Positions 565 through 19,668 of a DNA stretch of 20,257 bases are shown here, in pieces (the stretch's first letter is position 1; every line of letters starts with the position of its first letter). The stretch comes from Gemmatimonadota bacterium (GTDB lineage Bacteria; Gemmatimonadota; Gemmatimonadetes; Gemmatimonadales; GWC2-71-9). Location of the stretch: the NCBI GenBank assembly GCA_039586365.1, contig JBDHKN010000087.1:1-20257 (forward strand), in the 5' to 3' direction. Made by a program: the position numbers and the translations under genes. The notes under the pieces are model-generated. The model was given only the letters and a program-made list of their open reading frames with translations, searched no databases and was not told the origin of the DNA.

Positions 565-725
565 GCCCAACAAGCGTTTGCAGCTGGCGCTGCAGGCTTT
601 CTAGCTACGGACTTTGGCCCTGCCGCGCGGAGGGCTCCTTGTAGAAGGTGGGTACATGCTGGTTGACTTTGCTCCGTTGCCCTCCGCGCTTCTCAGGGCG
701 CAGCTGAAGCGCAAGGTCGTTAGGC
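565..725 (+). repeat. attC site, ~160-bp family (161 bp)
   Basis: GCCCAAC-aagcgtttgcagctggcgc ... gcgcagctgaagcgc-aaggtc-GTTAGGC. Confidence 0.93.
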
Positions 726-920
726 GGCACTCATTCTCGGTCCGGAGGTCTATAGGTCACAGGTAGGGGATTCAGCCACCACCGCGGAATCGCAGGCCTG
801 CCTCATTCTTGTCACGACAACTGAGGTGTGGGAGGTGTGGACGTTCTAGTATGGAGGCTGACTGGCAAACCGCTTAGTCCTGGCAAAGGTGAGAACTCTG
901 GCAACGGTCAGGCGGCTCTG

Positions 921-1344
921 ATGTTGAAGCGGATGTTGTTCACTGCCGCACTGCTCGCGTCGGGCGCCGCCGCATGCGACAGCGCGACAGCCCCCGCCAC
1001 GAGTTTGGTGCTCTCGAGAGCCCCTGACTTCGTCGCGGTCGTTATCCAGACTACGTACGAGAGCTTCTTCGCTCCCTCGGGGTTCTCCCTCGGGGTTCTG
1101 GGTCGAGCAGTACAAGGTCTGGGTTGCTATTCCGCCGTCCACGACCGCGAATGCTGGGGTGGTTGTCGGCGTGTCGAGGCCTGTATTCGTCAGCAACGAC
1201 GGCGTCCTAGCCCGTGCCACTGCGGATTCCATCAGTGTCGGCGATTCGATTCAAGTCTGGCACACCGGCTCGGTTGGCTACGGGGCGGAAGAGGCGCCTG
1301 ATTCACCGTGCTACATCGCCACCCAGGTCTTGATAGTTCGGTAG
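921..1344 (+). pseudogene. Lipoprotein (possibly DUF3221/YobA-like) frameshifted by a 13-bp tandem duplication
   Basis: Lipobox in MLKRMLFTAALLASGAAAC. CTCCCTCGGGGTT occurs twice (1072-1097). Removing one copy joins ORF 921 to the 1159-1344 frame, giving 136 aa ending ISVGDSIQVWHTGSV...ATQVLIVR. Confidence 0.8.
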
Positions 1345-1359
1345 CTCGCACGGGGCGCC

Positions 1360-1518
1360 GCCTAACAAGCGCTTGCAGCTGGCGCTGCTGCCTTTCGGGC
1401 AGCCGCCTTTTTTCCGTGACGGGGCGAGTTCACTATTGATGGTTACATTGCGGTTTGGCCTCTGCTCCGTGGACCCGCGCGGTCCTCAGGGCGCAGCTGA
1501 AGCGCAGAGTCGTTAGAC
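1360..1518 (+). repeat. attC site, ~160-bp family (159 bp)
   Basis: GCCTAAC-aagcgcttgcagctggcgc ... gcgcagctgaagcgc-agagtc-GTTAGAC. Confidence 0.95.
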
Positions 1519-1535
1519 CGCACCAAGGCGGGAAC

Positions 1536-2744
1536 GTGCTGTCTGTAGGATCTAGCAGACTCGGAATTCGGTGTTGTGCAGCGCTTAGCGCGATGCCGGT
1601 GCTTATGATCGCTGTTGGTCTGTCGGGTTGTCAGAGTGAGCGGCAACCGGCCCGTGACGTGGTGGTGGGCAGACCTCTGTGGACTCCGCAGACCGCTTGG
1701 ACAGTGCGCGCTGAGCCAACTCTAGTTCTTGGAACGCCGAATTCCGTGCCCGAAGCTCAGTTCCACGATGTTCGCGGTGCCATTGCCCTTTCCGACGGTC
1801 GTATTGTCGTCGCTGAAGCTTCTGCGGATCAACTCGTGGTTTTTGGCTCAGACGGCCGGGTTATCAGGACGATCGGTCGCAGTGGTCGTGGCCCAGGTGA
1901 GCTTCGCGACCCGAACGATCTCTTTCTGCTGCCAGGTGACACGATTGCAGTCAGAGATCTCTCCACATCTAGGATTACCTTGTTCACTCCTGACGGTAGT
2001 GTGGTCGACACGTGGCGCATTGATGGGCCACCACGGAGTATCGCGGGAGTCTTACGCGGTCATCGACTGGTTGCATTTGCCGATTTTCCAGGCCTCGGCA
2101 TGGGCTTGGTTCAAGCTCGCCCTTTCTCTGTCTTGGTACTGGACTTCAGTGGGGAAGAACTCGCTACGGTTGGCCCGTTTGAAGGGAGGAAGGGCTACAA
2201 CGTTGACCGTGGTAATCTGCATATCGGCATCGATTACATCTTCGACTACCGCACACATGTGGCGGCTGGCTGGGATTTCTTCGTTGTAGGAGACAGCGGG
2301 TCTGATTCTGTGATCGTCTACGACCTCAATGGGGAGCCTGCTCTTGTTATCCAGTTGCCTTTGGAGGGACGTCTTGTCCAGAGGGAGGATGTGGAAGCTT
2401 ATCTAGATAGGCACGCGCCTGCGAGCGAGAATCGCATGGACAAGGCCTGGCGGCAGGCACACCTCGAAATGATCGAGAAAGTCTCGATTCCGGAGAGACT
2501 CCCAAGGTTTGCCGATCTCCGAATTGATCCAGACGGCAACCTATGGATTCAAGGCTATCCGGAACCCGAGGCGAGAACTGACAATTGGTACGTGTTCGAC
2601 ATCCATGGTCTTTGGCTGGGGGTCGTGTCTGTCCCCGGCGGGCTCAAGCGTGTGCTGTACATCGGGCGGTCTTGCCTCCTGGGTCTAGCCCAGGGCGAGT
2701 ACGATATTCCGCTGGTGCAGGTGTACCAGCTCTTGAAACCATAG
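1536..2744 (+). CDS. 6-bladed beta-propeller (NHL-like) lipoprotein
   Basis: Lipobox LSGC. Propeller motifs LSDGRIVVAE, TIGRSGRGPGEL, DLRIDPDGNLWI. Start uncertain (GTG 1536 or ATG 1593); the ORF-track start at 1455 lies inside attC. Confidence 0.8.
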   Translation: MLSVGSSRLGIRCCAALSAMPVLMIAVGLSGCQSERQPARDVVVGRPLWTPQTAWTVRAEPTLVLGTPNSVPEAQFHDVRGAIALSDGRIVVAEASADQLVVFGSDGRVIRTIGRSGRGPGELRDPNDLFLLPGDTIAVRDLSTSRITLFTPDGSVVDTWRIDGPPRSIAGVLRGHRLVAFADFPGLGMGLVQARPFSVLVLDFSGEELATVGPFEGRKGYNVDRGNLHIGIDYIFDYRTHVAAGWDFFVVGDSGSDSVIVYDLNGEPALVIQLPLEGRLVQREDVEAYLDRHAPASENRMDKAWRQAHLEMIEKVSIPERLPRFADLRIDPDGNLWIQGYPEPEARTDNWYVFDIHGLWLGVVSVPGGLKRVLYIGRSCLLGLAQGEYDIPLVQVYQLLKP

Positions 2745-2770
2745 AGGCGGCGGGCTTATTGCTAGGTGCG

Positions 2771-2930
2771 GTCTAACAAGCGCTTGCAGCTGGCGCTGCA
2801 GTCTATCGAGGAACGGCCTCTGATCTGTGATAAGGTGAGTTCATCGCAGTTGGTGACATCGCGCCTTGGCCTCTGCTCCGTGGACCCCCGCGTTCCTGCG
2901 GGGCGCAGCTGAAGCGCAGAGTCGTTAGGC
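2771..2930 (+). repeat. attC site, ~160-bp family (160 bp)
   Basis: GTCTAAC ... gcgcagctgaagcgcagagtc-GTTAGGC. Confidence 0.95.
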
Positions 2931-3000
2931 GGCAGCTCCGGATTGGCCCTATGACTGACAGGTGGCCTCAGAAGGCTGTTGCTCTGCTGGAGGTGAAGCG

Positions 3001-3591
3001 ATGAGGGCCGGCCATCGTTTGATTATTGGCATCGTCCTGTCGATACTCGCCCCGGTCGCTTCCTTCGCCCAAACGGACTTTGCCATTGAGGAGATCCGGC
3101 TGTTGGCACGACCGTTTACGGACCCGTGGTCCACCAAGCCACCGCCGGCAGCCCTGGATCTACCGGGCGTGTGGGCGGCTATCGACTTCGAAGACTCCAT
3201 CGTTGTCGAGGTCGAGGTCCGATTGCCCGCCTCTGAACTTGAGAGAGCACTGCTCGTAGCGGACGTGCAAGTTGCCGCGGCACGGACAGTGGGACGTGCC
3301 GAGCAAGAGGAATTAGTTGACTGGGACCGCATGTACGACAGTGAAGTCTGGCTGCCGAGTTTTCACTCGTTTGCAGTCCCAGTGGCCGAAGGCAAGCAAA
3401 TCTCCGCTGGGCGCTACGTGATCACGCTGGGGCACTTCATGATTGAACCAATCCGAGGTGAACTGTACCGGCATGACCGGCGTCTGATTCTGACACATCT
3501 CCGTGTCACAGCGGCGCTGATTGCGGAACGAGCGGAGGATTACACCGCAGAGCACTTTGTCGAACGGACCATAAAGGTCGGACTGAACTAG
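3001..3591 (+). CDS. Hypothetical secreted protein
   Basis: GGAGGTG RBS before ATG 3001. Signal peptide ending ASFA-Q. Fills the cassette. Confidence 0.75.
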   Translation: MRAGHRLIIGIVLSILAPVASFAQTDFAIEEIRLLARPFTDPWSTKPPPAALDLPGVWAAIDFEDSIVVEVEVRLPASELERALLVADVQVAAARTVGRAEQEELVDWDRMYDSEVWLPSFHSFAVPVAEGKQISAGRYVITLGHFMIEPIRGELYRHDRRLILTHLRVTAALIAERAEDYTAEHFVERTIKVGLN

Positions 3592-3608
3592 CGATTCATC
3601 TGGCTGCC

Positions 3609-3748
3609 GCCTAACAAGCGTTTGCACCTGACGCGGGCGCCGCTCGCGGCGGTGGCCTTGGATTGTCATCGGTCGTGTTCGGCGGCCCGGCCGCTTCCCC
3701 GATCGGGCGTGGTCGTAGCCGCGCAGGTGAAACGCAAATCCGTTCGGC
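3609..3748 (+). repeat. attC site, ~140-bp family (140 bp)
   Basis: GCCTAAC-aagcgtttgcacctgacgcgg ... ccgcgcaggtgaaacgc-aaatcc-GTTCGGC. Confidence 0.93.
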
Positions 3749-3819
3749 GGGCGACGGGAGGTGGACGCTAGCTCCAGTAGTGATAGCACGCCCGACCGTA
3801 GGAAGGGAGGCGACGGGCC

Positions 3820-4362
3820 ATGGATCATGAGTCCTTCGGACGTTTTGCTGGCCGCGTCACGTCGTGCCACCTGGTGACGTACTTCATAGCGGGCGTACTC
3901 GCTTACACATTGCTTGATTATGGAACGCTGTTTCAGACGGGTGCGTTCGCCTGTCTGATGCGACCCATCAGTTCCAGGTGGGTGGCGGCTGGGCCAGCGC
4001 TACAGGTCATCCGTGGGCTCATGTTCGCTGTCGCGCTATACCCGTTCAAGAGCGTGTTCCTTGGTGGCCGTCGGGGGTGGCTGAGACTGTGGGGACTGCT
4101 GGTGGGCTTAGCGATCTTCTCCACCGCGGGTGCGGCGCCGGGGTCGGTGGAAGGCATCATCTACACGAAGATCCCGCTCGGCTCTCAACTGATCGGGCTA
4201 CCAGAGGTGCTGCTTCAGACGCTTGCCTTTTCTCTGCTTGTCACAACATGGCATCGGCATCCGCACCGGGCGTGGGCAATCGTCATGGCCAGCCTGACCG
4301 TCTTAGGGATCCTGCTGAGTCTGGCCGGAGCGTTCTTGCCGCGGCCGCCGGCGGTCGAATGA
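3820..4362 (+). CDS. Hypothetical multi-pass membrane protein
   Basis: GGAGG RBS, about 5 hydrophobic segments, fills the cassette. Confidence 0.8.
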   Translation: MDHESFGRFAGRVTSCHLVTYFIAGVLAYTLLDYGTLFQTGAFACLMRPISSRWVAAGPALQVIRGLMFAVALYPFKSVFLGGRRGWLRLWGLLVGLAIFSTAGAAPGSVEGIIYTKIPLGSQLIGLPEVLLQTLAFSLLVTTWHRHPHRAWAIVMASLTVLGILLSLAGAFLPRPPAVE

Positions 4363-4383
4363 AACCCGGGGGTCGGAAGCGCC

Positions 4384-4467
4384 GCCGAACAACCGGTTGG
4401 AGCTGACGAAGCACGGTTGTAGCCCCGAGCGGCCCCGGAACTTCGCAGCTCAACCGGGGTGTTAGGC
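4384..4467 (+). repeat. attC site, short outlier type (84 bp)
   Basis: GCCGAAC-aaccggttggagctgacgaag ... cttcgcagctcaaccgg-ggt-GTTAGGC. Arms pair with two bulged bases. Confidence 0.9.
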
Positions 4468-4473
4468 GGCGCT

Positions 4474-4691
4474 ATGCCGGATTGGTACACGCAACAGTTC
4501 TCCCTGAAAGGGAAGAGTGGCGACGCTAAGCGGTCAGCCTTCATAAAGACCTGGCGTTGTTGATCATCGTGGATGCTGTAATCGTGGTGGGTGTCAATGT
4601 CCTGCTTGGGGAATCTTTGATCCTTGCGGTCATCTGTGCGGCGGTCTTTAACGTGATCGATCTGTTTGGGCTGGCAGCGGAGGTCATGTAG
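4474..4691 (+). other. Small cassette with no long ORF: a 29-aa ORF (4474-4563) overlapping a 46-codon hydrophobic frame (4551-4691)
   Basis: Read by hand: MPDWYTQQFSLKGKSGDAKRSAFIKTWRC* and LALLIIVDAVIVVGVNVLLGESLILAVICAAVFNVIDLFGLAAEVM*. Confidence 0.4.
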
Positions 4692-4732
4692 GCTGGCTTC
4701 GCAAGGCGCCAGTGTCCGAAATGGTTAGCGCC

Positions 4733-4873
4733 GCCTAACAAGCATTTGGACCTGACGCGGGCGCCGCTCGGAGTGATGTCCTTATATTGTTCTTCTCTCG
4801 TGTTCAGTGGTAATGCCGCGCCCGCAGGCAGGCGCGGTCGTTGCCGCGCAGGTCAAATGCATATCCGTTAGAC
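4733..4873 (+). repeat. attC site, ~140-bp family (141 bp)
   Basis: GCCTAAC-aagcatttggacctgac ... gcaggtcaaatgc-atatcc-GTTAGAC, with compensatory changes in both arms. Confidence 0.93.
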
Positions 4874-4979
4874 GGACACAGCGGGGTCACTTTGCAGCGA
4901 GCCGATCATCGGACTGGGTAATGTCCCGGTCGATTAACACCTCGATGAGCTGATAATCCGCAGTCAAAGGAAACGCGGG

Positions 4980-5372
4980 ATGAGACGAAAGCTCTTTCTC
5001 GTCTGCGGTATCTTGGCATCCCTGCTCTATGTCGCTACTGACATGCTCGCAGCTATACTATGGGAAGGCTACAGCTACACTGCCCAAACCATCAGTGAGA
5101 CCTTTGCTATCGGTGCTCCGACGAGACCACTCGTCGTTCTGCGTGGCCTTGGGTATTCTGTCCTTGTGATCGCATTCGGATTGGGCGTCTGGGGATCGGC
5201 CAGTGGAAAGCGTCCGCTGCGCGTTGCAGGCGGACTGTTGGTCGGAATCGCCGTCGTCGACTTGATGGCGCCATTTGTTGCCCCGATGCATCTTCGTGGC
5301 GCCGAGCGGACGCTAGCCGATACGATGCATATAGTCCTGGCGCTGTGGGGAACGGCCTTTGATGTCTGGTGA
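4980..5372 (+). pseudogene. DUF998-like membrane protein, 3'-truncated and fused into an attC remnant
   Basis: GYSYTAQTISE...H pattern typical of DUF998 proteins. Sequence switches to attC-family sequence at CTGGCG (5337), and the last residues (LWGTAFDVW) are read from attC. Confidence 0.75.
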
Positions 5373-5469
5373 GGTCAGTTCATTGCAGTTAGGTGAGGTC
5401 GCCCTTCGGCTTTTGCTCCGTGGACACCGGCGTTCCTCAGGGCGTAGCTGAAGCGCGAAGTCGTTAGGC
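5337..5469 (+). repeat. Truncated attC (~160-bp family) lacking R'' and most of L''
   Basis: ctggcgctg...ggaacggcct...ttcattgcagtt...ctccgtggac...gcgtagctgaagcgcgaagtc-GTTAGGC, with no upstream RYYYAAC. Confidence 0.88.
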
Positions 5470-5482
5470 ATCAGGTACTGCA

Positions 5483-5512
5483 TCGTGCTAGATTTGCTTA
5501 GGACTAGCACGA
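5483..5512 (+). promoter_or_regulatory. Inverted repeat overlapping a candidate extended -10 of the hicBA cassette (putative autoregulatory operator)
   Basis: TCGTGCTAG-N12-CTAGCACGA. TGcTAGATT at 5486-5494. GAGGA RBS follows. Confidence 0.5.
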
Positions 5513-5522
5513 GGATGGTCAT

Positions 5523-5744
5523 ATGAAGCTTACCGCCCTATTCCGTAAGGTCCCTGAGGGCTACATCGGATTTGTAGAAGAACTCGCGGGTGCCAACACC
5601 CAAGGAAAGACGCTAGAGGAGGCCAGGGAGAACCTGCGTGAAGCCGTCGAGCTTGTTCTCCAGGCTAACCGTAGCCTTGCCCACGAGTCCGTCGGCGAGG
5701 AGGGCGGCTTCATCCGCGAACCCTTCGAGGTCTCGAGCGATTGA
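5523..5744 (+). CDS. hicB: HicB family antitoxin (short form, no obvious DNA-binding domain)
   Basis: GYIGFVEELAGANTQGKTLEEARENLREAVEL is a HicB partial RNase H-fold signature. Confidence 0.9.
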   Translation: MKLTALFRKVPEGYIGFVEELAGANTQGKTLEEARENLREAVELVLQANRSLAHESVGEEGGFIREPFEVSSD

Positions 5745-5922
5745 AGCGCCGCGATCTCGTCCGCCATTTGGAGTCCCACGGGTGCAAGCTGTATAGAGAA
5801 GGCCGCACACTCTTTACATCAACCCTAGGGCGCGAAAGGTCGCTACCGTCCCACGGCATCGGAAGATCAACGAGTATCTCGCTCGCAAGATCTGCCGTGA
5901 CTTGCAGGTAGCTGAGCCCTGA
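5741..5922 (+). pseudogene. hicA: HicA family toxin, frameshifted at ~5804
   Basis: TTG overlaps the hicB stop. First frame reads MKRRDLVRHLESHGCKLYREG; shifted frame reads HTLYINPRARKVATVPRHRKINEYLARKICRDLQVAEP*. The 182-nt span is not a multiple of 3. Confidence 0.85.
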
Positions 5923-5923
5923 T

Positions 5924-6083
5924 GCCTAACAAGCGCTTGCAGCTGGCGCTGCTGGGTATTGGGGAACGGCCTCTGATCTGTGCTAGGGTGAGTACATTGC
6001 AGGTGGTGACATCGCGCTTCGGCAGCTGCTCCGTGGCCCCCCATGCTGCTGCGGGGCGCAGTTGAAGCGCAGAGTCGTTATGC
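5924..6083 (+). repeat. attC site, ~160-bp family (160 bp)
   Basis: GCCTAAC ... gcgcagttgaagcgcagagtc-GTTATGC. Confidence 0.94.
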
Positions 6084-6141
6084 GGCACTTCGACACACAT
6101 AGGATCCGGACCTGTTATCTCGCGCGCGAGAGGGGGACGAT

Positions 6142-6645
6142 ATGACGCATATACAGAGGCATCCGGTTCGGAGGGTACTGCTTCTTGGATGGATACCGAT
6201 CATTATCTTGGCGGCCTGCACTGGATCAGCGGACTCACAAAGAGCGGCGAACATCGAAACGGTCACACTGCTCCACACTGAGGTGTGGAGTGAAGGCCGC
6301 GTGGAACTAATCCCAACGCTATACGCTGACGGGTATGTTGGTGACTTTCCAGGTGGAACAACCTTGAATGGCCGCGACGGCATACAAGCGGAAGTCGAGA
6401 ACGTTCGTTCTGCATTTCCTGATTGGACAGAGACCGTGGAGCAGATTGTTGCTGACGGGGATTGGATCGTCACCCTATATCGGTCAACAGGCACGCATTC
6501 CGGGGAGTTTCTTGGTAACCCAGCGACTGGGAATGTTGTGGGGATTCTCGAGGCATCCGTGTTTCGAATGGTCGATGGGAAGATTGCTGAGCAGTGGGCA
6601 TTCCCAGACGTTCTGAGTCTTCAGACCCAGACGGCTTCTAAGTGA
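6142..6645 (+). CDS. SnoaL-like ester cyclase family lipoprotein
   Basis: Lipobox LAAC. RSAFPDW, GTHSGEFLGNPATG, DGKIAEQW motifs. Confidence 0.88.
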   Translation: MTHIQRHPVRRVLLLGWIPIIILAACTGSADSQRAANIETVTLLHTEVWSEGRVELIPTLYADGYVGDFPGGTTLNGRDGIQAEVENVRSAFPDWTETVEQIVADGDWIVTLYRSTGTHSGEFLGNPATGNVVGILEASVFRMVDGKIAEQWAFPDVLSLQTQTASK

Positions 6646-6683
6646 TGCTGAGCGTCCGCGAACGCACGACCGCACTGGGTGCC

Positions 6684-6823
6684 GCATAACAAGCGTTTGC
6701 ACCTGACGCGGGTACCATTCGTGGTGTTTGCCTTTGATTGTCTCTTGTCGTGTTAAGTAACCTGGCCGCGCCCGTCTGTGAGCGTGGTCGTTGCCGCGCA
6801 GGTGAAACGCTAATCCGTTAGAC
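6684..6823 (+). repeat. attC site, ~140-bp family (140 bp)
   Basis: GCATAAC ... gcgcaggtgaaacgctaatcc-GTTAGAC. Confidence 0.94.
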
Positions 6824-6877
6824 GGCAGCAGATACGCGGATCTCAAGCTGGTGTAGGCGCCTGGAAGGAGGTAGCAC

Positions 6878-7354
6878 ATGTTGAGCACTCGCTGCTCTGT
6901 CGCGGCGATCGTCCTAATGGCGATTGCCGGTTGTAGTTCTCAGCGTGACAGCGATTCATCCGCGGCCGACATCGCGGCCGTTCAGCAGTTGGTGACGGAT
7001 ATCGACGCTGCTGGCGACCTGGACAGTTTCTTGTCTTTCTTCGCGGAGGATCTCGTTGACATGCCACCGAACGAACCGGCGATCATCGGCAAGCAGGCCC
7101 TACGAGCACACCACGAGCCGCTGTATGAAGCGTTCAACGTCCGTATCACACGTGAGCCAGTCGAGACGCATGCGTTCGGCGATGTGGTGATACAGCGGGG
7201 TGCCGGTGTCGCTGAGCTCGCTCCCAAGGCGGGAGGGGACCCAGTGATCTTGGATCAGAAGTACCTGTTCGTCTTCCGCCGGCAAGAGGACGGTTCCTTC
7301 AAGCTCTGGCGGGCGATCTTCAACGATAACGCACCGCTCGCGGCGTCTCAGTGA
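6878..7354 (+). CDS. NTF2-like (DUF4440/SnoaL) lipoprotein
   Basis: AGGAGGT RBS, lipobox IAGC. AGDLDSFLSFFAED, MPPNEPAIIGK, KYLFVFRRQEDGSFKL motifs. Confidence 0.85.
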   Translation: MLSTRCSVAAIVLMAIAGCSSQRDSDSSAADIAAVQQLVTDIDAAGDLDSFLSFFAEDLVDMPPNEPAIIGKQALRAHHEPLYEAFNVRITREPVETHAFGDVVIQRGAGVAELAPKAGGDPVILDQKYLFVFRRQEDGSFKLWRAIFNDNAPLAASQ

Positions 7355-7378
7355 CTCGCGTGCAACAAGCAGGCTGCC

Positions 7379-7519
7379 GTCTAACCAGCGTTTGCACCTG
7401 ACGCGGGCACGGTATGGGGAGGTGGCCTTAGATTTGTCGTTAGTCGTGATTGACGGTCCGGCCGCTCCCTCAATCGGGCGCGGTCGTAGCCGCGCAGGTG
7501 AAACGCTATTCCGTTAGGC
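7379..7519 (+). repeat. attC site, ~140-bp family (141 bp)
   Basis: GTCTAAC ... gcgcaggtgaaacgctattcc-GTTAGGC. Confidence 0.94.
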
Positions 7520-7551
7520 GGCAGCCACACGCATTGAAGAACACAGGTAGG

Positions 7552-8169: not shown

Positions 8170-8216
8170 TCATCTTCTGCCCAGTTCGTGTGAGGCAACT
8201 GAGCATCCTCGCTGCC

Positions 8217-8376
8217 GCCTAACAAGCGCTTGCAGCTGGCGCTGCAGCCTTTCCGGGAACGGCCTCTGAACTTCAGTCAGGTGAGTTCATTGCACTTAGT
8301 GACATCGCGCTTCGGTCTCTGCTCCGTGGACCCACGTGCTCCAGCGGGGCGCAGGTGAAACGCGGAGTCGTTAGGC
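8217..8376 (+). repeat. attC site, ~160-bp family (160 bp) with a 140-family-like L' box
   Basis: GCCTAAC-aagcgcttgcagctgg ... gcgcaggtgaaacgc-ggagtc-GTTAGGC. Confidence 0.92.
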
Positions 8377-8399
8377 CGACTGCTGCCGGAGGACTTAGT

Positions 8400-8816
8400 G
8401 TGAACGTTAAGACACCTAAGAGGATTGCGACTGTCGGCGGAGCGCTTCTCTCCATCAGTGGTCTGGTGAATGCCGTGCTCGGGGCACGGATAGGAGTACT
8501 AGTCTACGACGCGTATCCCGGCGGAAGAATGGGTGATGTGGGCGTCATTGCCGGCGTTGCCGGGATAGTCATCGGCATTGTTATTGTCTTCCTTGTCGTT
8601 CCTCTCTTCGAACGCCGTAACCGGGCGCTTCTAGCGCTTGGCGGCGTTCTCACGATTGTATTAGGGCACGCTGGCGCAATCGCCGGCGCAATCTACGTTG
8701 GGACGCTGGGGGTGATTCTCTGCTACATAGCAGGCGTTTGGATGCTGGTTATCGCCGCGAGGGGAGTCAACACTCGAAACTGGCGATCCCACTCTGGCGG
8801 GTCAGCAGCGGCCTAA
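8400..8816 (+). CDS. Hypothetical Gly-rich membrane protein (~4 TM)
   Basis: GGAGGA RBS before GTG 8400. Stop TAA lies inside R'' (GCC-TAA-C). Confidence 0.75.
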   Translation: MNVKTPKRIATVGGALLSISGLVNAVLGARIGVLVYDAYPGGRMGDVGVIAGVAGIVIGIVIVFLVVPLFERRNRALLALGGVLTIVLGHAGAIAGAIYVGTLGVILCYIAGVWMLVIAARGVNTRNWRSHSGGSAAA

Positions 8817-8950
8817 CAAGCGTTTGCACCTGTCGCGGGCGCCATGTGGGGCTGTGGCCCTAGATTGTCATTAGTCATGTTCAGCTGTCCAGCCGCTTCC
8901 TCAATCGGGCGCGGTCGTTGCCGCGCAGGTGAAACGTATATCCGTTAGGC
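8811..8950 (+). repeat. attC site, ~140-bp family (140 bp)
   Basis: GCCTAAC ... gcgcaggtgaaacgtatatcc-GTTAGGC. Confidence 0.94.
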
Positions 8951-8973: not shown

Positions 8974-9483
8974 ATGGTGAAGATCGACCAACAAGGTGGA
9001 GTGCTAGGCACGTGGCAAACCAGCAGTCGCGTGACGGCATTTCTAATCGAAAACCTTCCAGATGAGGTATGGTGCTCGACCATTCCGGGGGCGCCGAGGC
9101 GAACGGTGCAGATGATCGGGGGGCACCTCCACAACTGCCGCTGCATGTGGGTCAAGATGCTCGGCAAGAGACACGGTCTAGCCGTCCCGCGGGGTGTGGG
9201 CCGGTACGGGGTGTCGCGGCGCCAGCTTTTGGCAGCACTGGGTCGGAGTGCTCGCGCCATCGCTGGGCTATTGGAAGTCGGTCTCGCGAACGGCGGACAC
9301 CTCGCTGGATTCTCGCCACCGGAGGTCACACACTTCCTGGCCTACCATGTAGCACACGAGGGTCACCACCGCGGGCAGATTGTGATGGTGGCTCGACAGC
9401 TCGGCCACCGACTGCCGGCGGAGGTCACGAACGGCTTGTGGCAATGGTCGAAGCGCGGCCGCGAGGCGAGGGGTGACGCCTAA
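8974..9483 (+). CDS. DinB/YfiT-like four-helix metal-binding family protein
   Basis: His triad: GGHLHN and HEGHHRGQI. Stop lies inside R''. Confidence 0.88.
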   Translation: MVKIDQQGGVLGTWQTSSRVTAFLIENLPDEVWCSTIPGAPRRTVQMIGGHLHNCRCMWVKMLGKRHGLAVPRGVGRYGVSRRQLLAALGRSARAIAGLLEVGLANGGHLAGFSPPEVTHFLAYHVAHEGHHRGQIVMVARQLGHRLPAEVTNGLWQWSKRGREARGDA

Positions 9484-9617
9484 CCAGCGTTTGCACCTGA
9501 CGCGGGCGCTATCGATGACGAGTCTTTAGATTGTCATTAGGCCGCGTTCGGCGGTCGGGCCGCTCCCGTGGACGGGCGCGGTCGTTGCCGCGCAGGTGAA
9601 ACGCATATCCGTTAGGC
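9478..9617 (+). repeat. attC site, ~140-bp family (140 bp)
   Basis: GCCTAAC ... gcgcaggtgaaacgcatatcc-GTTAGGC. Confidence 0.94.
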
Positions 9618-9690: not shown

Positions 9691-10182
9691 TCAGCCCCCG
9701 CCTCCGAGCAGTTCCCGCGCCTCATCCTCGGTAAGCCCGGCCTCGCCCACGTCCGCGCTGGCGTCGAGCAATTCCCGGTCCTCCGCCATTCTGGCTAGGG
9801 CCAGCGAACCAGCAGCGGAGCCCGCACCCGCCAGTGCGAACACAGGTCCCAAGACCAGAAGGGCCTCCCCAAGGCCCTCCCCTCCAAGGGCCGCCGCCAA
9901 GACAAAGATCCCGGACAGCAGAAGACCCCCAATGCCTCCCCACACTGCAAAGCGCGGAAGCGACATCTGGTCAAACCTGCGCCGGCGCTCAACAATCCCG
10001 AGGACCCCAGAGAACATGACGCCGGCAAGAAAGCCGAGCAGAGCAAAGAAAAGGGGAAACGGGACGTCGGCGGCGCCAAAACCGACTACGAGCAGGAGGA
10101 TTAGGCCCGCGCCGAACCATGCTATTGCCCAGGTCAGACCCATGGCGATTGCGCCGCGGATGCGTCGCAGCCACGTCTTCAT
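9691..10182 (-). CDS. Hypothetical 4-TM membrane protein, inverted within its cassette
   Basis: GGAGGTGG RBS before ATG 10182. MKTWLRRIRGAIAMGLTWAIAW followed by hydrophobic helices. Confidence 0.85.
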   Translation of the reverse strand: MKTWLRRIRGAIAMGLTWAIAWFGAGLILLLVVGFGAADVPFPLFFALLGFLAGVMFSGVLGIVERRRRFDQMSLPRFAVWGGIGGLLLSGIFVLAAALGGEGLGEALLVLGPVFALAGAGSAAGSLALARMAEDRELLDASADVGEAGLTEDEARELLGGGG

Positions 10183-10255
10183 TGCCACCTCCCTGTGCAC
10201 TTGAACCTACTAGCCGACGCTGGTTCCCATGCAGCTTTACAGCACTTTGTTTCGC

Positions 10256-10359: not shown

Positions 10360-10499
10360 GCCTAACAAGCGTTTGCACCTGGCGCGGGCGCCGTACGGTG
10401 CGATGGCCTTAGATTGTAAATGGTTGTGTGCCGTGGCCCGGCCGCTTCCTCAATCGGGAGCGGTCGTAGCCGCGCAGGTGAAACGCATATCCGTTAGGA
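10360..10499 (+). repeat. attC site, ~140-bp family (140 bp)
   Basis: GCCTAAC ... gcgcaggtgaaacgcatatcc-GTTAGGA. Confidence 0.93.
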
Positions 10500-11548: not shown

Positions 11549-11581
11549 GCAACCTCATGGCCACTATGGCTGCGGCTCGCT

Positions 11582-11647
11582 TCCTAACGGGGCGTTGCAC
11601 CTGACAGCGCGCATTGCGCGCCGCAGGTGAACGCCAGCACGTTAGGC
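11582..11647 (+). repeat. attC site, short type (66 bp)
   Basis: TCCTAAC-ggggcgttgcacctgac-agcgcgcattgcgcgc-cgcaggtgaacgcc-agcac-GTTAGGC. Confidence 0.9.
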
Positions 11648-11687
11648 CGCGTGGCGCGCGCTGTGCAACAAGCGTGGAGGTAAACCG

Positions 11688-12371: not shown

Positions 12372-12393
12372 TAGGGTCACCGTGGTCCACGCG

Positions 12394-12534
12394 GCCTAAC
12401 AAGCGTTTGCACCTGACGCGGGCACCGTACGGGGTTCTGGGCTTAGATTGTCGTTCACTCGTGTTCAGTGGTCCGGTCGCTTCCGCAATCGAGCGCGGTC
12501 GGTGCCGCGCAGGTGAAACGCTAATCCGTTAGGC
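12394..12534 (+). repeat. attC site, ~140-bp family (141 bp)
   Basis: GCCTAAC ... gcgcaggtgaaacgctaatcc-GTTAGGC. Confidence 0.94.
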
Positions 12535-12572
12535 GGACTGAGGCTGCAGAAATCATCTATATCGGAGCTGTC

Positions 12573-13097: not shown

Positions 13098-13103
13098 CGA
13101 GCC

Positions 13104-13265
13104 GCCTAACAAGCGTTTGCAGCTGGCGCTGCGTGCTTCGCATAGACAGCCTTTGTTCCGTAGTGATTGTGGATTCCGTGGTCGTGGTGACGATTAGCTG
13201 ATTGCCATTGTTCGCAGCTGCGCCGCTCGTTCCTCACGGCACAGATGAAACGCTGACCGTTAGAC
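13104..13265 (+). repeat. attC site, 162-bp subfamily
   Basis: GCCTAAC-aagcgtttgcagctgg ... cgctcgttcctcacggcacagatgaaacgctgacc-GTTAGAC. Confidence 0.9.
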
Positions 13266-13291
13266 AGCACCAGAAGTTGTAGAGGTGGTGC

Positions 13292-14038: not shown

Positions 14039-14055
14039 CCACTTGCCGCTGTGCT

Positions 14056-14193
14056 GTCTAACAGGCGCTTGCTGCTGGCGGGCGCGTGGACTGGCGGAGT
14101 GATCGCGCGCGTAGCAGGTTCCGTGAGGATGTCATTGACACACGTTGCTGCTGGTGCGACTGCGCCCGCAGCAGAAGCGCAGGGTCGTTAGGC
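14056..14193 (+). repeat. attC site, divergent type (138 bp)
   Basis: GTCTAAC-aggcgcttgctgctggcgggcgc ... gcgcccgcagcagaagcgc-agggtc-GTTAGGC. Confidence 0.92.
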
Positions 14194-14219
14194 GGCGTCT
14201 CAAGGAAAGGAAGCGACTC

Positions 14220-14699: not shown

Positions 14700-14708
14700 T
14701 ACGACGCC

Positions 14709-14868
14709 GCCTAACAAGCGCTTGCAGCTGGCGCTGCGACCTGTCGTGCAACGGCATTTGTTCCGTCGTGAGGTGGGTTCGTTGCAGTTGGTGACATCGC
14801 GCTTCGGCCTCTGCTCCGTGGCCCCCCGCGCTCCTCAGGGGCGCAGCTGAAGCGCAGAGTCGTTGGGC
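14709..14868 (+). repeat. attC site, ~160-bp family (160 bp)
   Basis: GCCTAAC ... gcgcagctgaagcgcagagtc-GTTGGGC. Confidence 0.95.
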
Positions 14869-14902
14869 CGCGTAACCCTCAACAGAAGGGAGCAGTGGAT
14901 TG

Positions 14903-15871
14903 ATGGCGAAATGGCTATCCTGTGACACCGGGCTGCAGATCAGAGCGGCAAGCAATCTGGTACCGCCGCGGACCGTCACCTTCCAGCGCACCATAGCTGC
15001 CGTCATGGTCGTATTGGCGCTCCTCGTTCCGTACCATGCTATGGCGCAGGGCGATACATGGCCGCGGCGAGTACTAATCACCAACGACAACGGCATCTCA
15101 GACGTCGCCACGCAGGCACTCGCGCGCTCGTTCGCAAACACCGCCGACGTTGTCCTCGTGGCGCCCAGTGAAGACCGGAGCGGCACGTCCAACCTGATGT
15201 CCTTCACACGGACAGGCCGGTTCGTGGTTGAGCGGCTCGACATTGGGGAGGGCATCCGAGCGTGGGCATTAGATGGCTACCCGGCCGATTGTGTGGTCTT
15301 CGCGCTGGCCGGACCCATGGCTGAGGAGCTACCGGACCTTGTCGTATCGGGGATCAACGGCGGCGCCAACATGGCGGACGAATGGTTCGGCTCGGGCACC
15401 ATCGCTGCGGCGCGGACCGCGGCCTTCCTGGGAATCCCCGCCATCGCGGTTTCCGGTATCGACGACGACGATCCGGAGGCCGTGGCAGCCGTGGTGGACT
15501 GGGTTGTGCGTCTTGCAAGGAGCCCAATCATGCAACGTGTCCAGCCGCCGAGCTACCTGACCATCAGCCTCCCCGTCGGACCGCCGTCGCAGATCACTGG
15601 CATCGAAGTTGTGGACCGAGCACGTGGACTCTTGGGAGGCGTGGCCTGGCTGGATGAGGCGGCCAGTCAGGCAGCCGGCAAGGAGGTATGGTCGATCGAG
15701 ATCGAGGCACAGGGCCAGCCAGACGCCGAGTCGGACGTGGCCGCCGTCGCGCGCCGCCGCATCGCGCTCGTGCCAATGCGCGTCGGCGACGCCGACCTTG
15801 AGACGCTGGATTGGTTGCGCACGAACGAGGGCCTTCTGCCCCCGTGGCGTCAGCTACCACCCGAACGGTGA
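14903..15871 (+). CDS. surE: SurE-like 5'/3'-nucleotidase with a signal peptide
   Basis: RVLITNDNG, APSEDRSG, GYPADCV, SGINGGAN, SGTIAAA, GIPAIAVS. Start uncertain. Confidence 0.87.
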   Translation: MAKWLSCDTGLQIRAASNLVPPRTVTFQRTIAAVMVVLALLVPYHAMAQGDTWPRRVLITNDNGISDVATQALARSFANTADVVLVAPSEDRSGTSNLMSFTRTGRFVVERLDIGEGIRAWALDGYPADCVVFALAGPMAEELPDLVVSGINGGANMADEWFGSGTIAAARTAAFLGIPAIAVSGIDDDDPEAVAAVVDWVVRLARSPIMQRVQPPSYLTISLPVGPPSQITGIEVVDRARGLLGGVAWLDEAASQAAGKEVWSIEIEAQGQPDAESDVAAVARRRIALVPMRVGDADLETLDWLRTNEGLLPPWRQLPPER

Positions 15872-15886
15872 ACTGGCCTCAACGCG

Positions 15887-15952
15887 GTCCAACAAGGCGA
15901 TGCACCTGACGGTCCGCTCCGCGGCCCGCAGGTGATCGCCGATCTGTTAGGC
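15887..15952 (+). repeat. attC site, short type (66 bp)
   Basis: GTCCAAC-aaggcgatgcacctgacgg ... ccgcaggtgatcgcc-gatct-GTTAGGC. Confidence 0.9.
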
Positions 15953-16085
15953 CGCTCTCATAGCTGGAGGTCCTCGGCTGGCTGCGCGCTCGAATTCCGA
16001 AGGTCTTCCATCAGGCTACGGGCCATCGCAGGTGAACGGCGTGTGTCATATATCGACCGCAGTACCTAACGTGTTGGAGGTAGGC

Positions 16086-16886
16086 ATGCATGAACGGAAT
16101 GGCACCGTGTTTTCCATTCTCCTGAAGAATCGGAGAATGAGGTATTGTCTGGGGCTGCTCGGCGTGCTTCTGTGGCCCCCCTTGTCTTCGGTGGCATACT
16201 TAGAAGCGCAGGAATTGACTGGTCTCCGTGGAGATCCTGCCGCCATCGCGGACGCTGAGAAGATGGTCGAAGCGATGGGCGGTCTGGCTATCTGGCGTGA
16301 GCTTGAGGGCGTTCACTTTGTTCACGAGTGGGACATCTTCGACCGTCCTGACATCTACCTGGAAAACGAGATTCTGGATCTCACTGGGCCACGCTCGTAC
16401 GTCACGATGGAGAGCGAGATATACAACAGAGTTCGAGCGTATAGCCCTGAGTATGGATACTGGAATGTAGTCAACGGGGAGTTCTCGTATGCCAGCGATC
16501 AGGCATACGCGAATGCCATGGAGCGGGCTCCATATAGTATTTACCGACTAGCCAGAGCCATTGCCCGGGGCGATAGCTTTTATTCTGTCCAGTTCGGTCC
16601 AATGAGGGGTATGCCCGGCACAACCGCCCTTGAGTTTCGCGGTCCAGACGGCGAAATCCACGGCTGGATCCTGCTCAACACCAGAAAGGAGCCGGTGGTG
16701 TGGGCGACGACCCAGTACAGCTATAGCTTTGGCCCGCTACAGCGGTTCGGGAATCTCCGTGTCCCGAGGTGGGCGATGACTGGGGGCGGCCGGGTTCGTT
16801 ACGAGATGGTGTCACTGACCGGAAGTAGTGAGCGCCCCGATCTTTCGCTCTTTGCCCCGCCGCCTGAATTTCGCGGGGAATTCTAG
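16086..16886 (+). CDS. Hypothetical secreted protein (allele 1 of a repeated cassette)
   Basis: GGAGGT RBS then ATG 16086. Hydrophobic signal ending LEA-Q. Mostly synonymous divergence from allele 2 supports this frame. Confidence 0.85.
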   Translation: MHERNGTVFSILLKNRRMRYCLGLLGVLLWPPLSSVAYLEAQELTGLRGDPAAIADAEKMVEAMGGLAIWRELEGVHFVHEWDIFDRPDIYLENEILDLTGPRSYVTMESEIYNRVRAYSPEYGYWNVVNGEFSYASDQAYANAMERAPYSIYRLARAIARGDSFYSVQFGPMRGMPGTTALEFRGPDGEIHGWILLNTRKEPVVWATTQYSYSFGPLQRFGNLRVPRWAMTGGGRVRYEMVSLTGSSERPDLSLFAPPPEFRGEF

Positions 16887-16908
16887 CTGAAGCGCATATC
16901 TGCTAGCT
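16885..16908 (+). repeat. attC right-arm remnant (L'-spacer-mutated R')
   Basis: AGCTGAAGCGCATATCT-GCTAGCT aligns without gaps to AGGTGAAACGCATATCC-GTTAGGC. Confidence 0.7.
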
Positions 16909-17009
16909 GGCCAGTCATCTTGAGTAGAAGCCGCATCGCCGATGTTTGCAGTGTGAGTTTTCGCGTTGCTAGGTTTCTCGTTCATGGCTGCTCAGAACGA
17001 GGTGCAACA

Positions 17010-17960
17010 GTGAGATCGATACTATCGAGCAGACGGTTCGGATTCGTCTTTGTGGCTCTCCTACTGGGGCTTGGTCCGGCCGTGGTTGCACAAGAGGTGA
17101 CAGACGCCGGGTCCAAAGGGATCGAGATAGCCGACGGCGTGCATCTCCTTGCTGGGCTGGCGTGCAATGTCATCGCCGTGATTGCTCCCGACGGTGTCTT
17201 GATCATCGACAACGGGAGGGCCAGCGGTTCTGAGGACCTGGAGAAATCGATCACCGAACTCGACGCGGGTCCGGTCCGGATCGTCCTAGACACGCATTTT
17301 CACTTCGACCACATTGGCGCAAACGAGGCCCTCGCTAGAGATGGGGCAGTCATCGTCGCGCACGAGAACGTAAGGCGGCGCATGCTGGCCGAATGGCGTG
17401 TTCCAGATACTCTAGGCATTAGTTACCCCACCGTCGCGCCGTACCCAGAGGTAGCTCTTCCGATACTAACGATCACTGACTCCCTCACTGTACATTTTGG
17501 CGGACACGAAATCGAAGTCCGATATCTTCCGAGCGCCCACTCGGATGCGGATGTCGCGGTGTTCTTGCGTGACGCGAATATCCTTCACACCGGAGACCTC
17601 TACCTCTCGAACGGCTTCCCCATCATCGATTCTTATCATGGTGGGACGATAGATGGGCTGATCGCCGCGGTCGACGCCTTGATAGACCTCATCGACGACG
17701 ACACGAAGGTCGTTCCGGGGCACGGTCCGGTGTCGAACCGGCGGGAGTTGCGCGAGTATCGGCACATGCTTGCGGCGGGTCGCGACCGGATCACAGCCCT
17801 TATCGACGAAGGTAAGACCCTAGAGGAGGTTGTAGCGGCGGATCCGACAGCTGGCCTCTATAGGCGTGGGGAGTCCTGGCTTCCTCCCAAGCTCTTCGTC
17901 TGGATGGTCTACGTGGACCTCACCCGGTCTCGTTCTCCAGCAGAAGATACGAGTGGCTGA
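17010..17960 (+). CDS. Secreted MBL-fold metallo-hydrolase (cyclase/glyoxalase II-like)
   Basis: THFHFDHIG (HxHxDH), AHSDAD, TGDL, VPGHG. GAGGT RBS before GTG 17010. Signal ends VVA-Q. Confidence 0.9.
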   Translation: MRSILSSRRFGFVFVALLLGLGPAVVAQEVTDAGSKGIEIADGVHLLAGLACNVIAVIAPDGVLIIDNGRASGSEDLEKSITELDAGPVRIVLDTHFHFDHIGANEALARDGAVIVAHENVRRRMLAEWRVPDTLGISYPTVAPYPEVALPILTITDSLTVHFGGHEIEVRYLPSAHSDADVAVFLRDANILHTGDLYLSNGFPIIDSYHGGTIDGLIAAVDALIDLIDDDTKVVPGHGPVSNRRELREYRHMLAAGRDRITALIDEGKTLEEVVAADPTAGLYRRGESWLPPKLFVWMVYVDLTRSRSPAEDTSG

Positions 17961-17985
17961 CTTACCGCCCCCTCATTCTCCGGCC

Positions 17986-18125
17986 AGTGAACAAGCGTTT
18001 GCAGAAGGCGCGCGCGTCGCTCTGGGCGTTGGCCTTAGATTGCGATTGGCTGAGTTCTGCGGCTCGGCCAGCGCCTCAATCGGGCGCGGTCGTTGCCGCG
18101 CAGGTGAAACGCTGATCCGTTAGGC
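17986..18125 (+). repeat. Degenerate attC, ~140-bp family (R'' and L'' mutated)
   Basis: AGTGAAC-aagcgtttgcagaagg ... gcgcaggtgaaacgctgatcc-GTTAGGC. Confidence 0.85.
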
Positions 18126-18172
18126 GGCCGTGGCGAAGTTCCAGGCTGACGAGTAATAGCTGTGAGGTGCTA

Positions 18173-18766
18173 ATGAGATCAGCCCACAGGCACCTTTGTC
18201 GAGCGGTTCGAGTGTCTCTGATCGCATTTTTCGGCTGTGCGGGAAGCTCTACAGCTCCGTCGGCCGGAGAGATCTCACAGTTAGTTCTCTTTCACATCTC
18301 CTATGAGAACTTTGCCTGGGGCCATCAGAGCGCTGGCTCGTATATAGATAATCACGGCCGCGTCTGGCGGCTCAGCACCGCGCTTCATTGGTGGCCGGAG
18401 GTAATGAACATACTGCAGGGTAGCGAGGATACTCTTTATTACTCCGTTGCGGAATTGGAGCAAAGTTACGCAGATGCCAGAGACTCGCTTGTTGCTGTTA
18501 TCGACGCTGGCGAGCTACGAGAGAAGTATCTGTTGATTGCTGGGGCCGCGCGGGGCACCTATTCGCCACCAGTTAACGCCGGTGCGGACATGGGGTCCCT
18601 CGTCGTTGGTTGTCTGGCCTATGATCAAGAAGTCGAGAGATACCGAAAGGTGATTCTTAGCATGACTGGAGATTGGGAGGCGATGAATGTCGCCAGCTCT
18701 GCGACTGAATTGGACGCCTGGCTGAGAAGCCTTGCGCAGCAGTTCCTTCTGGGGACGGACGGCTGA
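18173..18766 (+). CDS. Hypothetical lipoprotein
   Basis: Lipobox-like AFFGC. YENFAWG and GADMG motifs. Fills the cassette. Confidence 0.75.
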   Translation: MRSAHRHLCRAVRVSLIAFFGCAGSSTAPSAGEISQLVLFHISYENFAWGHQSAGSYIDNHGRVWRLSTALHWWPEVMNILQGSEDTLYYSVAELEQSYADARDSLVAVIDAGELREKYLLIAGAARGTYSPPVNAGADMGSLVVGCLAYDQEVERYRKVILSMTGDWEAMNVASSATELDAWLRSLAQQFLLGTDG

Positions 18767-18780
18767 GGTGTTGAGCGGCC

Positions 18781-18942
18781 GCCTAACAAGCGTTTGCAGG
18801 TGGCGCTGCATACTTCGCGTTCATTGCCTTTGTTCGGTGGTCGATGCGGTGTTAGAGGGCAAGCTGACTACGAGCTGATGTCCTCTGTTCCAGCCGTGCC
18901 GCTCGTTCCTCACGGCGCAGCTGAAACGCTGATCCGTTAGGC
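18781..18942 (+). repeat. attC site, 162-bp subfamily
   Basis: GCCTAAC ... cgctcgttcctcacggcgcagctgaaacgctgatcc-GTTAGGC. Shares internal sequence with 13104-13265. Confidence 0.92.
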
Positions 18943-18958
18943 ATACACGCGCGCGGCC

Positions 18959-18987
18959 TTGCGAGTCCGTCCGGGATGACCAAGATT
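18959..18987 (+). promoter_or_regulatory. Candidate promoter of the TA cassette, possibly leaderless
   Basis: TTGCGA-N17-AAGATT, with 6 nt between the -10 and ATG 18994 and no SD. Confidence 0.4.
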
Positions 18988-18993
18988 TTGGGT

Positions 18994-19215
18994 ATGGCCA
19001 AGCGTGCGATTGACTACGAGAAGCTCAGCATCGCGGAGCGGCTTCAACTCGTGGAGGATATCTGGGATAGTATCGCCGACGAGACCGAGGCGCTTCCTTT
19101 GACTGATGCGCAGAAGGCGGAACTCGACCGCCGTCTTGAGCAACATCGTCGCGATCCAGATTCCGCCATACCCTGGGAACAGGTTCGGGAAGAACTAAGT
19201 AAGCCTGGCGGATGA
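18994..19215 (+). CDS. Addiction module antitoxin (TIGR02574-like)
   Basis: LSIAERLQLVEDIWDSI...QKAELDRRL...IPWEQV signature. Confidence 0.9.
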   Translation: MAKRAIDYEKLSIAERLQLVEDIWDSIADETEALPLTDAQKAELDRRLEQHRRDPDSAIPWEQVREELSKPGG

Positions 19216-19508
19216 CGCTCCGCTTGGTCTTCCATCCAGCGGCTCGAGCCGAGCTGCGGGAAGCTCAGGGGTGGTACGAAGCCCGGGTTCCGGGTCTCGG
19301 CCTTGAGTTTGCGCGTGCAGTCGAGGCTGCGCTGATGGCCATCCAACGCAGCCCGGCAGCGTATCCGGTTGTCTATGAGGAAGTCAGGCAGGCCGTGCTG
19401 CGCCGGTTCCCCTACTCTCTCCTCTTCATTCCGGAAGCCGACAGCATTCTGGTGGTCGCGTGCTTCCACCACAGGCGCGATCCGCGGACCTGGCAAGAGC
19501 GCGCGTGA
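19212..19508 (+). CDS. RelE/ParE family type II toxin
   Basis: FHPAARAELREAQGWYE...GLGLEF...RRFPY...HHRRDP. ATGA overlap with the antitoxin stop. Confidence 0.92.
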   Translation: MTLRLVFHPAARAELREAQGWYEARVPGLGLEFARAVEAALMAIQRSPAAYPVVYEEVRQAVLRRFPYSLLFIPEADSILVVACFHHRRDPRTWQERA

Positions 19509-19509
19509 T

Positions 19510-19668
19510 GCCTAACAAGCGCTTGCAGCTGGCGCTGCAGCCTTTCGTGGAACGGCCTTTGGTCTGTGATAAGGTGAGTTCATTGCAGTTAGTGACATCG
19601 CGCTTTGGCCTTCGCCACGTGGACCCCCGCGCTCCTCAGGGCGCAGCTGAAGCGCAAAGTCGTTAGGC
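19510..19668 (+). repeat. attC site, ~160-bp family (159 bp)
   Basis: GCCTAAC ... gcgcagctgaagcgcaaagtc-GTTAGGC. Confidence 0.95.

Follow-up and report, generated by a model that had tools for sequence, protein, structure and literature searches.

An integron array from a Gemmatimonadota genome with long attC sites in two interleaved families and signs of core exchange between cassettes

The attC sites of integrons are quoted as 57 to 141 bp long (PMC5371416), a descriptive range and not a mechanistic criterion, and attC spacers as long as 10 nt have been recorded (PMC7370490). Integrons have been listed for Gemmatimonadota (PMC8618304), and a Gemmatirosa element carrying over 10 attC sites is known (PMC9024848). 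The type of attC serves to assign the origins of cassettes (PMC8352920).

Here we describe the array of attC sites and gene cassettes on a stretch of 20,257 nt, which we call the window. It is the whole of contig C13 of G000, the genome of an uncultured Gemmatimonadota bacterium assembled to 5.44 Mb in 132 contigs and 86% completeness. Judged by its sequence, this is a real and probably chromosomal, active integron array, and a variant of the known chromosomal integron system. We consider it likely that the window represents the middle of an array in which long attC sites of two families are interspersed, the integron integrase IntI shuffles cassettes at the GTT crossover point and the near-identical left arms of the sites mediate swaps of their cores.

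The window contains 22 full attC sites and two remnants, all on the plus strand, and the count and positions given in the initial annotation were borne out. The size classes proposed there also agree with the site coordinates: nine sites of 159 to 162 bp (family A), nine of 140 to 141 bp (family B) and four others (66, 66, 84 and 138 bp). Family A sites lie at 565..725 (161 bp, with a 9-nt spacer between L' and R'; its link to the preceding gene is spanned by a contig of run X8), 1360..1518 (159 bp), 2771..2930 (160 bp), 5924..6083 (160 bp, with a low predicted fold probability of 0.002), 8217..8376 (160 bp), 13104..13265 (162 bp, 8-nt spacer), 14709..14868 (160 bp), 18781..18942 (162 bp) and 19510..19668 (159 bp). 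The site at 8217 is counted in A but looks chimeric, its left arm and core being A-type and its L' box B-type, and its fold probability is 2e-6. Family B sites lie at 3609..3748 (140 bp), 4733..4873 (141 bp), 6684..6823 (140 bp), 7379..7519 (141 bp), 8811..8950, 9478..9617 and 10360..10499 (140 bp each), 12394..12534 (141 bp) and 17986..18125 (140 bp, with a degenerate R''). The others are an 84-bp site at 4384..4467, the only one in the window with a 6-nt spacer, two short sites of 66 bp with 8-nt spacers at 11582..11647 and 15887..15952, and a 138-bp site with a 9-nt spacer at 14056..14193, the last seen in an alignment as well as by the finder described below. One remnant, at 5333..5469, belongs to family A and has lost its left arm, together with the end of a DUF998 gene, at the 9-nt match CTGGCGCTG that is common to the gene and the attC stem; the other, at 16886..16908, consists of a right arm only, with an L'-like box, a 9-nt spacer and a degenerate R'. 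Along the window the full sites follow each other in the order AAABoBABBABBBoBAoAoBAA (o, other), so the two families are interleaved.

The array is cut at both contig ends. On the left, a contig of run X1, which may be the source sample, extends beyond base 1 into a further A-like site, and on the right the contig ends inside the second copy of a duplicated cassette. The term superintegron, used in the initial annotation, may apply, given at least 24 homogeneous, lineage-specific sites; since the contig is cut at both ends and G000 holds no IntI above the TIGR02249 cut-off, the total size of the array and its link to an intI gene rest on relatives. No further A or B site was found in G000 outside C13, and one A and one B site gave no match among 72,556 plasmids. 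Elsewhere in G000, a lone 133-bp attC with a 9-nt spacer lies on C52 (2357-2489, minus strand), and C9 carries four consecutive attC-like right ends at about 43900-48500 (minus strand), unconfirmed by the structure-based finder. Contigs C54, C44 and C124 hold homologs (80-86%) of the cassette genes at 15977-16877 and 18258-18749, with no A or B site found alongside; these are possible donors or stranded cassettes.

All sites share one layout. It starts with R'', a spacer of 5 nt and an L'' of 8 nt that contains an extra base; the variable core comes next, followed by an L' of 7 nt, another spacer and R'. R'' (RYYYAAC), R' (GTTRRRY), the inverted repeats L'' and L' and the extrahelical base in L'' were all found in the window sites. 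A structure-based finder built on the R boxes, the 5-nt left spacer, an L box with one extrahelical base and a 12-bp stem returned 20 of the 22 full sites on the plus strand, none on the minus strand and none in any of 20 dinucleotide-resampled windows. The two that it missed, at 8217 (L''/L' mismatch) and 17986 (degenerate R''), have one defect each and were recognised by eye. A first finder, with the right spacer limited to 5-7 nt, had recovered only 3 of the 22 sites, and this failure exposed the long L'-R' spacer. Of the window sites, 18 have a spacer of 9 nt there, three one of 8 nt and a single site one of 6 nt. Both spacers of the window sites (5 nt and 6-9 nt) comply with the recorded maximum, yet the long one is nearly fixed here.

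Each family aligns with a mean column identity of 80% (one extra site being included in each alignment), and the shared internal loop motifs quoted in the initial annotation are present in these alignments. Anatomy, null control and alignments together support the identification of the repeats as attC sites and of the two families as co-resident and lineage specific. The claim that the sites exceed the classical size range stands for family A, since 9 of the 22 window sites, at 159-162 bp, fall outside the published 55/57-141 bp; family B lies at the top of this range, not beyond it. Using our own implementation for bottom-strand fold probabilities, we predict the recombinogenic hairpin at a probability above 0.1 in 18 of the 22 window sites.

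For comparison, we collected sites from metagenomes and genomes with an A-type pattern (gap 88-116). Family B (gap 86-87) falls outside this pattern and was gathered only as a neighbour, so the set is enriched for A. It comprises 184 sequences (183 loci among the matches listed, plus the window; 11 duplicate loci were omitted) with 328 distinct sites among the matches listed: 169 of family A, 74 of family B and 85 others. In the 145 collected sites outside the search pattern, the L'-R' spacer is 9 nt in 102, 8 nt in 39, 7 nt in 2 and 6 nt in 2, and the extra L'' base is a top-strand G in 140. The first L-box position shows compensatory changes, being C:G in 94 and T:A in 73 of the 169 A sites; at position 6, 162 of 169 A sites have G:C and 69 of 74 B sites have C:G. 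The median predicted bottom-strand fold probability is 0.42 for family A (60 of 169 sites) and 0.71 for family B (60 of 74).

The cores of these sites appear to be decoupled from the genes that precede them. We grouped the last 250 nt before each site into 45 gene clusters and took the closest pair per cluster at 90-99% identity, all sequences being short-read metagenome assemblies. Fifteen clusters contained such a pair, and in 12 of them the core identity was below 0.90 (0.94, 0.95 and 1.0 in the other three). Over these 15 diverged clusters, the median identity was 0.96 for the gene, 0.97 for its last 40 nt, 1.0 for the left 28 nt of the site and 0.79 for the core, the last value being equal to that of random pairs of A sites of 159-160 bp. 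For ten pairs of A length, the partner's core ranked 121, 45, 39, 7, 37, 74, 76, 1, 8 and 41 among 180 family members. Moreover, A and B sites were both present in seven gene clusters, two of which involve window genes. The short-chain dehydrogenase (SDR) gene at 3..548 (plus strand; PF13561, E=3e-38), the 5'-truncated first cassette, is followed by an A-type site in the window and by a B-type site in L047/L059, with gene ends that are 94% identical. Conversely, the membrane-protein gene at 8400..8816 (plus strand, no Pfam family), whose link to its attC is spanned by contigs of X6 and X8, has a B-type site in the window and an A-type site in L052/L079, at 95% identity. The identity of swapped pairs stops about 18-30 nt into the site; for the A/B switch at 8811, the bracket narrows to the first 18 nt, R'' included. 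We are inclined, with some reserve, to regard the cassette of this lineage not as a fixed unit of gene and attC but as a gene that keeps both of its ends, on the R'' side and at the GTT-side bases, while the long core is exchanged as a whole in less time than the gene needs to diverge by a few percent.

Several observations weigh against this reading. In 26 clusters with a pair at 99% identity or above the core is kept (minimum 0.94), and it is also retained in 2 of the 15 diverged clusters (0.95, 1.0), while one partner in a swapped pair is the nearest neighbour by core. The core differences are evenly spread, so that the crossover point is merely bracketed, and the nearly invariant left arms offer few markers. 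The loci were picked by the A-type pattern, many come from a few related metagenomes, and the clusters are not independent. As regards the shuffling by IntI, a profile search of G000 gave no IntI above the TIGR02249 cut-off, and neither intI nor attI was found there.

Shuffling at the GTT is apparent from several lines of comparison. The 5' end of each cassette is for the most part reverse-complementary to its own R'' plus flank, a match that fails chiefly where a remnant lies in between, and we regard this complementarity as the trace left by circular cassettes that are cut at G|TT. In 8 clusters (seven with A sites of 159-163 bp, one with a 169-bp site), identical units of gene and attC are followed by different successors, one of them containing ambiguous letters, and these part company at GTTRRRY or immediately behind it. 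Base 4863 is joined to base 7510 in runs X6 and X8, which come from two studies, with 255 letters on the shorter side, so that the B site at 4733..4873 adjoins the cassette at 7514. The joint falls inside an 8-nt common stretch containing the GTT crossover point, and the block missing there (4868..7513, plus strand) comprises the truncated DUF998 gene, a HicB/HicA pair and two SnoaL-like genes. The cassette at 15947..16901 (plus strand), which begins at the GTT of its attC, has a second copy at 19663..20257 (plus strand), cut by the contig end, which starts at the GTT of another attC (copies 98% and 91%, families D6 and D12). The long sites with the 9-nt spacer consequently mark points of rearrangement, for which IntI would be the agent. 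That a gene might travel with its upstream attC was ruled out, as common cassette 5' ends begin at a GTT behind unrelated sites.

The process that we envisage has two components. A standard IntI, missing from this assembly and present in genomes of the same genus, likely shuffles cassettes at each GTT; the bottom strand would fold and be cut by IntI as in Vibrio, and the 9-nt spacer would form a lopsided loop (about 6 nt versus 2) that the unmodified enzyme tolerates. Cores would be swapped among cassettes by a further mechanism, for which recombination between near-identical left arms, or slippage there during replication, is the likely candidate: a crossover between two left arms would leave gene 1 with core 2 and would release gene 2 with core 1 as a circle that IntI could reinsert. 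Core exchange of this kind could keep both families host-typical over time. We favour recombination or slippage between left arms because an integrase-free deletion between 83%-identical sites has been observed in vivo (PMC5371416), and because the site at 8217, the remnant at 5333 and the loci L085 and L073 resemble crossovers inside a site.

The main rival, which we hold to be unlikely, is that IntI itself swaps the cores by recombining the top strand at the R'' boxes, in which case everything after AAC would come from the other site. In altered VCR sites the crossover is documented to move to R'' (PMC2727003), the top strands of many sites are predicted to fold nearly as well as the bottom strands, and R'' lies within the bracket of the switch at 8811. 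A few cases fit this mechanism poorly: L085 and L073 show the L''/L' mismatch expected from a crossover past L'', the L'' of L085 matches that of its gene partner, and the site at 8217 and the remnant at 5333 look like crossovers within a site.

Equally doubtful in our view is the reading of the array as a CALIN, left frozen or eroding in a strain that has lost intI. The lack of an IntI in G000 would agree with this, as would the two remnants, a frameshifted HicA gene and one chimeric site. On the other hand, G000 is an incomplete assembly in many contigs, the array runs off both ends of its own, and close strains differ by a precise GTT joint.

Rather improbable is a history in which cores are inherited with their genes and simply mutate much faster than the flanks, for instance as an exposed single-stranded loop, with no exchange at all. 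It would account for the even scatter of differences along the core and for L073 and L108 being nearest neighbours at 0.79. However, mutation cannot convert A to B, and this explanation is already unlikely for the A/B switches, where core identity (0.45 in the window switches) is that of random A-B pairs (0.48). Genes that are 98.4-98.8% identical carry cores only 0.62-0.69 identical, and at 58% of 268 differing positions both letters are common family alleles, against 28% expected, an excess to which selection on the letters could contribute.

Less probable again is repeated cassette genesis, in which the same gene was captured several times, each time with a newly built attC of the host type. 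Near-identical genes with unrelated cores would result in this case too, and an 86% homolog of one cassette gene lies on C54, where no A or B site was found. Yet the 40 non-coding nt ahead of R'' (median 0.97) and the left arm (median 1.0) are common to paired cassettes, and independent genesis would need to recreate both. Least probable of all are assembly chimeras at the repeated arms of about 30 nt, which the short-read origin of all sequences and the breakpoints within those arms might suggest, since the window pairings are spanned in other studies (X8 1-730; X6 8240-8929; X8 8239-8921), either alternative pairing is found in two assemblies (L047/L059; L052/L079) that possibly share reads, and 30-nt repeats would be shorter than the usual final k-mers.

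Exchange through the left arms and shuffling by a standard IntI are the readings that we prefer. The initial annotation had pointed to flanking intI and attI as a check; this gave nothing in G000, where the contig lacks the flanks of the array, and found intI in the same-genus genomes G003 and G006, which are among 21 of 40 relatives with an IntI over the TIGR02249 cut-off. The G006 enzyme aligns end to end with VchIntIA (2A3V; E=4.7e-75) with a single 1-residue gap, so that an insertion in the integrase accommodating the long spacer was rejected. Among 14 intI loci examined, attC sites lie downstream on the same strand in 7 and upstream on the opposite strand in none, and attI-like GTTRRRY sites were located behind intI in relatives. 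On one contig, the metagenome locus L114 unites an IntI gene, an attI-like site, a single cassette and a site of 162 bp whose arms are A-type. The distance from intI to the array in G006 is meaningless, as the scaffold is broken by many N gaps around both. In the same genome, pieces of about 2 kb between N gaps carry isolated attC sites (L029, C1:1737001-1757000), a pattern typical of an array fragmented during assembly.

Among GTDB genomes, the A-type pattern matched 17 loci, of which 15 are labelled Gemmatimonadota, in support of the host proposed in the initial annotation, and two Polyangiaceae. One of the matched contigs belongs to G003. Of 7 same-genus genomes, 2 contained a match to a wider pattern, and the A-type pattern matched 1 of 400 genomes sampled across the phylum and at least 143 metagenome stretches. 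Families A and B occur together in 32 of the 79 sequences having two or more sites, among the matches listed. After removal of three false positives (the 175- and 177-bp sites in L063 and an 82-bp overlap in L049), which reduced the set from 328 to 325 sites, 192 of the 325 among the matches listed are longer than 141 bp, with a maximum of 170 bp, the set being A-enriched by design. Most of the runs in which parts of the window occur carry the label of a sediment metagenome, and four runs from four studies were compared.

A third long family of 169-170 bp with an 8-nt spacer precedes different cassettes in L111 (1165-1333 and 2525-2694) and L133 (298-466). In other genera of the same family and order (L009-L012, L037, L038, L040), the L'-R' spacer is mostly 8 nt, and long spacers appear typical of the wider group. 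The Polyangiaceae-labelled loci L058 and L046 match the A-type arm pattern, the sites of L058 being 153 bp long with 8-nt spacers; they may reflect either a common cassette pool or a binning error.

As for the cores themselves, the window sites matched no Rfam family at E up to 1, and alignment folding retained only the L stem, so that a conserved fold within the cores was discarded. An alignment suggestive of common ancestry of A and B cores (p=0.08) does not lead us to claim it. Promoters are not enriched in cores (2 sigma-70-like sites in 20 kb versus 5.1 expected); terminator-like sites number 22 versus 14.7 +/- 4.2 expected, some of them within cores. Within family A cores (e.g. 19510-19668), a stretch of about 25 nt is imperfectly repeated in direct orientation (p about 0.01 versus shuffles), which suggests growth through duplication. 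In family B cores (e.g. 8811-8950), the motif GCCTTAGATTGT is strongly conserved within a part that lacks a conserved fold, and is possibly a protein-binding site.

Of 26 translated stretches scanned, 16 have a Pfam match at E 0.001 or better. The cargo includes SDR, SnoaL-like, MerB-like, DinB, Rce1-like, SIMPL, dienelactone hydrolase, RidA-like, SurE and metallo-hydrolase-fold proteins and two toxin-antitoxin pairs. One of these pairs, at 5523..5922 (plus strand), combines a HicB-like antitoxin (PF21748, E=1.5e-7) with the frameshifted HicA toxin (PF07927, E=4e-4, below its cut-off); the other, at 18976..19508 (plus strand), consists of an addiction-module antitoxin and a ParE toxin (PF09720, E=2.8e-20; PF05016, E=4.1e-7; TIGR02574). 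The metallo-hydrolase scores far under all beta-lactamase cut-offs. The only cassette gene opposing the direction of the array, at 9691-10200 (minus strand), encodes a membrane-like protein of 169 residues with no Pfam match, and the start of its cassette has an 89% homolog on contig C37, after a different attC-like right arm. In 726-1359, a duplication of 13 nt near 1072 disrupts the open reading frame, and 9 additional nt are present near 823; both are absent from the X1 and X5 contigs.

If core exchange takes place, it bears on the question of how cassettes gain host-typical attC sites: it would explain such sites in chromosomal integrons and would undercut inferring the origin of a cassette from its attC. 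With two distinguishable, unrelated-looking families of cores, the array supplies its own natural markers: the same gene is seen under different cores and the crossover can be mapped. Sites of 159-170 bp with a fixed 9-nt spacer would likewise extend the known substrate range of unmodified IntI, and long sites may be under-counted by tools trained on sites of up to 141 bp. In the literature searched, outside of which lies much subscription literature, we found no description of either attC family or of whole-core exchange.

Compared with described systems, the array is most readily set beside the VCR array of Vibrio cholerae (IntIA, PDB 2A3V), with which it shares the R''-L''-core-L'-R' anatomy on one strand, the GTT crossover, small genes mostly of unknown function with toxin-antitoxin cassettes, and, through its relatives, an IntI collinear with VchIntIA. 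It differs in having two interleaved families instead of one, an L'-R' spacer of 9 nt compared to 5 nt in VCR (PMC2727003), C instead of G as the first extrahelical base of the bottom strand and, in relatives, an intI gene co-oriented with the cassettes; as the second extrahelical base, C is rare in clinical cassettes and often better excised (PMC3053210). Most chromosomal integrons have sites of 120-129 bp, with a maximum of 141 bp (PMC5371416), compared to 159-170 bp here. In Treponema chromosomal integrons intI is also transcribed toward attI and the cassettes, and T. succinifaciens also carries several attC types in one genome (63, 68 and 132 bp), but those sites are shorter, the phylum is another one, and the part of that paper available to us describes no core exchange (PMC3607928). 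Nearest in style is the Acidobacteria attC model of PMC8352920, which has a top-strand G at the extrahelical position and a 6-position L'-R' spacer whose insert state is entered in about 45% of cases, so that spacers above 6 nt are already modelled; the 11 taxon models there, which we set beside families A and B by description, have consensus lengths of 60-127 and include none for Gemmatimonadota. Like a CALIN (Cury et al. 2016, PMC4889954), the array is an attC cluster with no intI nearby in the assembly, but the contig is cut at both ends here, and intI may only appear to be absent. For Vibrio, gene conversion was proposed by Boucher et al. (2006, PMC1382264), with exchange of attC sequence as a cause of species-specific homogeneity; what was a suggestion there is met here by direct sequence evidence, in the form of near-identical genes with different whole cores and of A/B switches. 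The system belongs to a known kind, as do the genes that it carries and the integrase, and the length record is modest; it is the decoupling of gene and core, traceable through two marker families, that is the part worth following.

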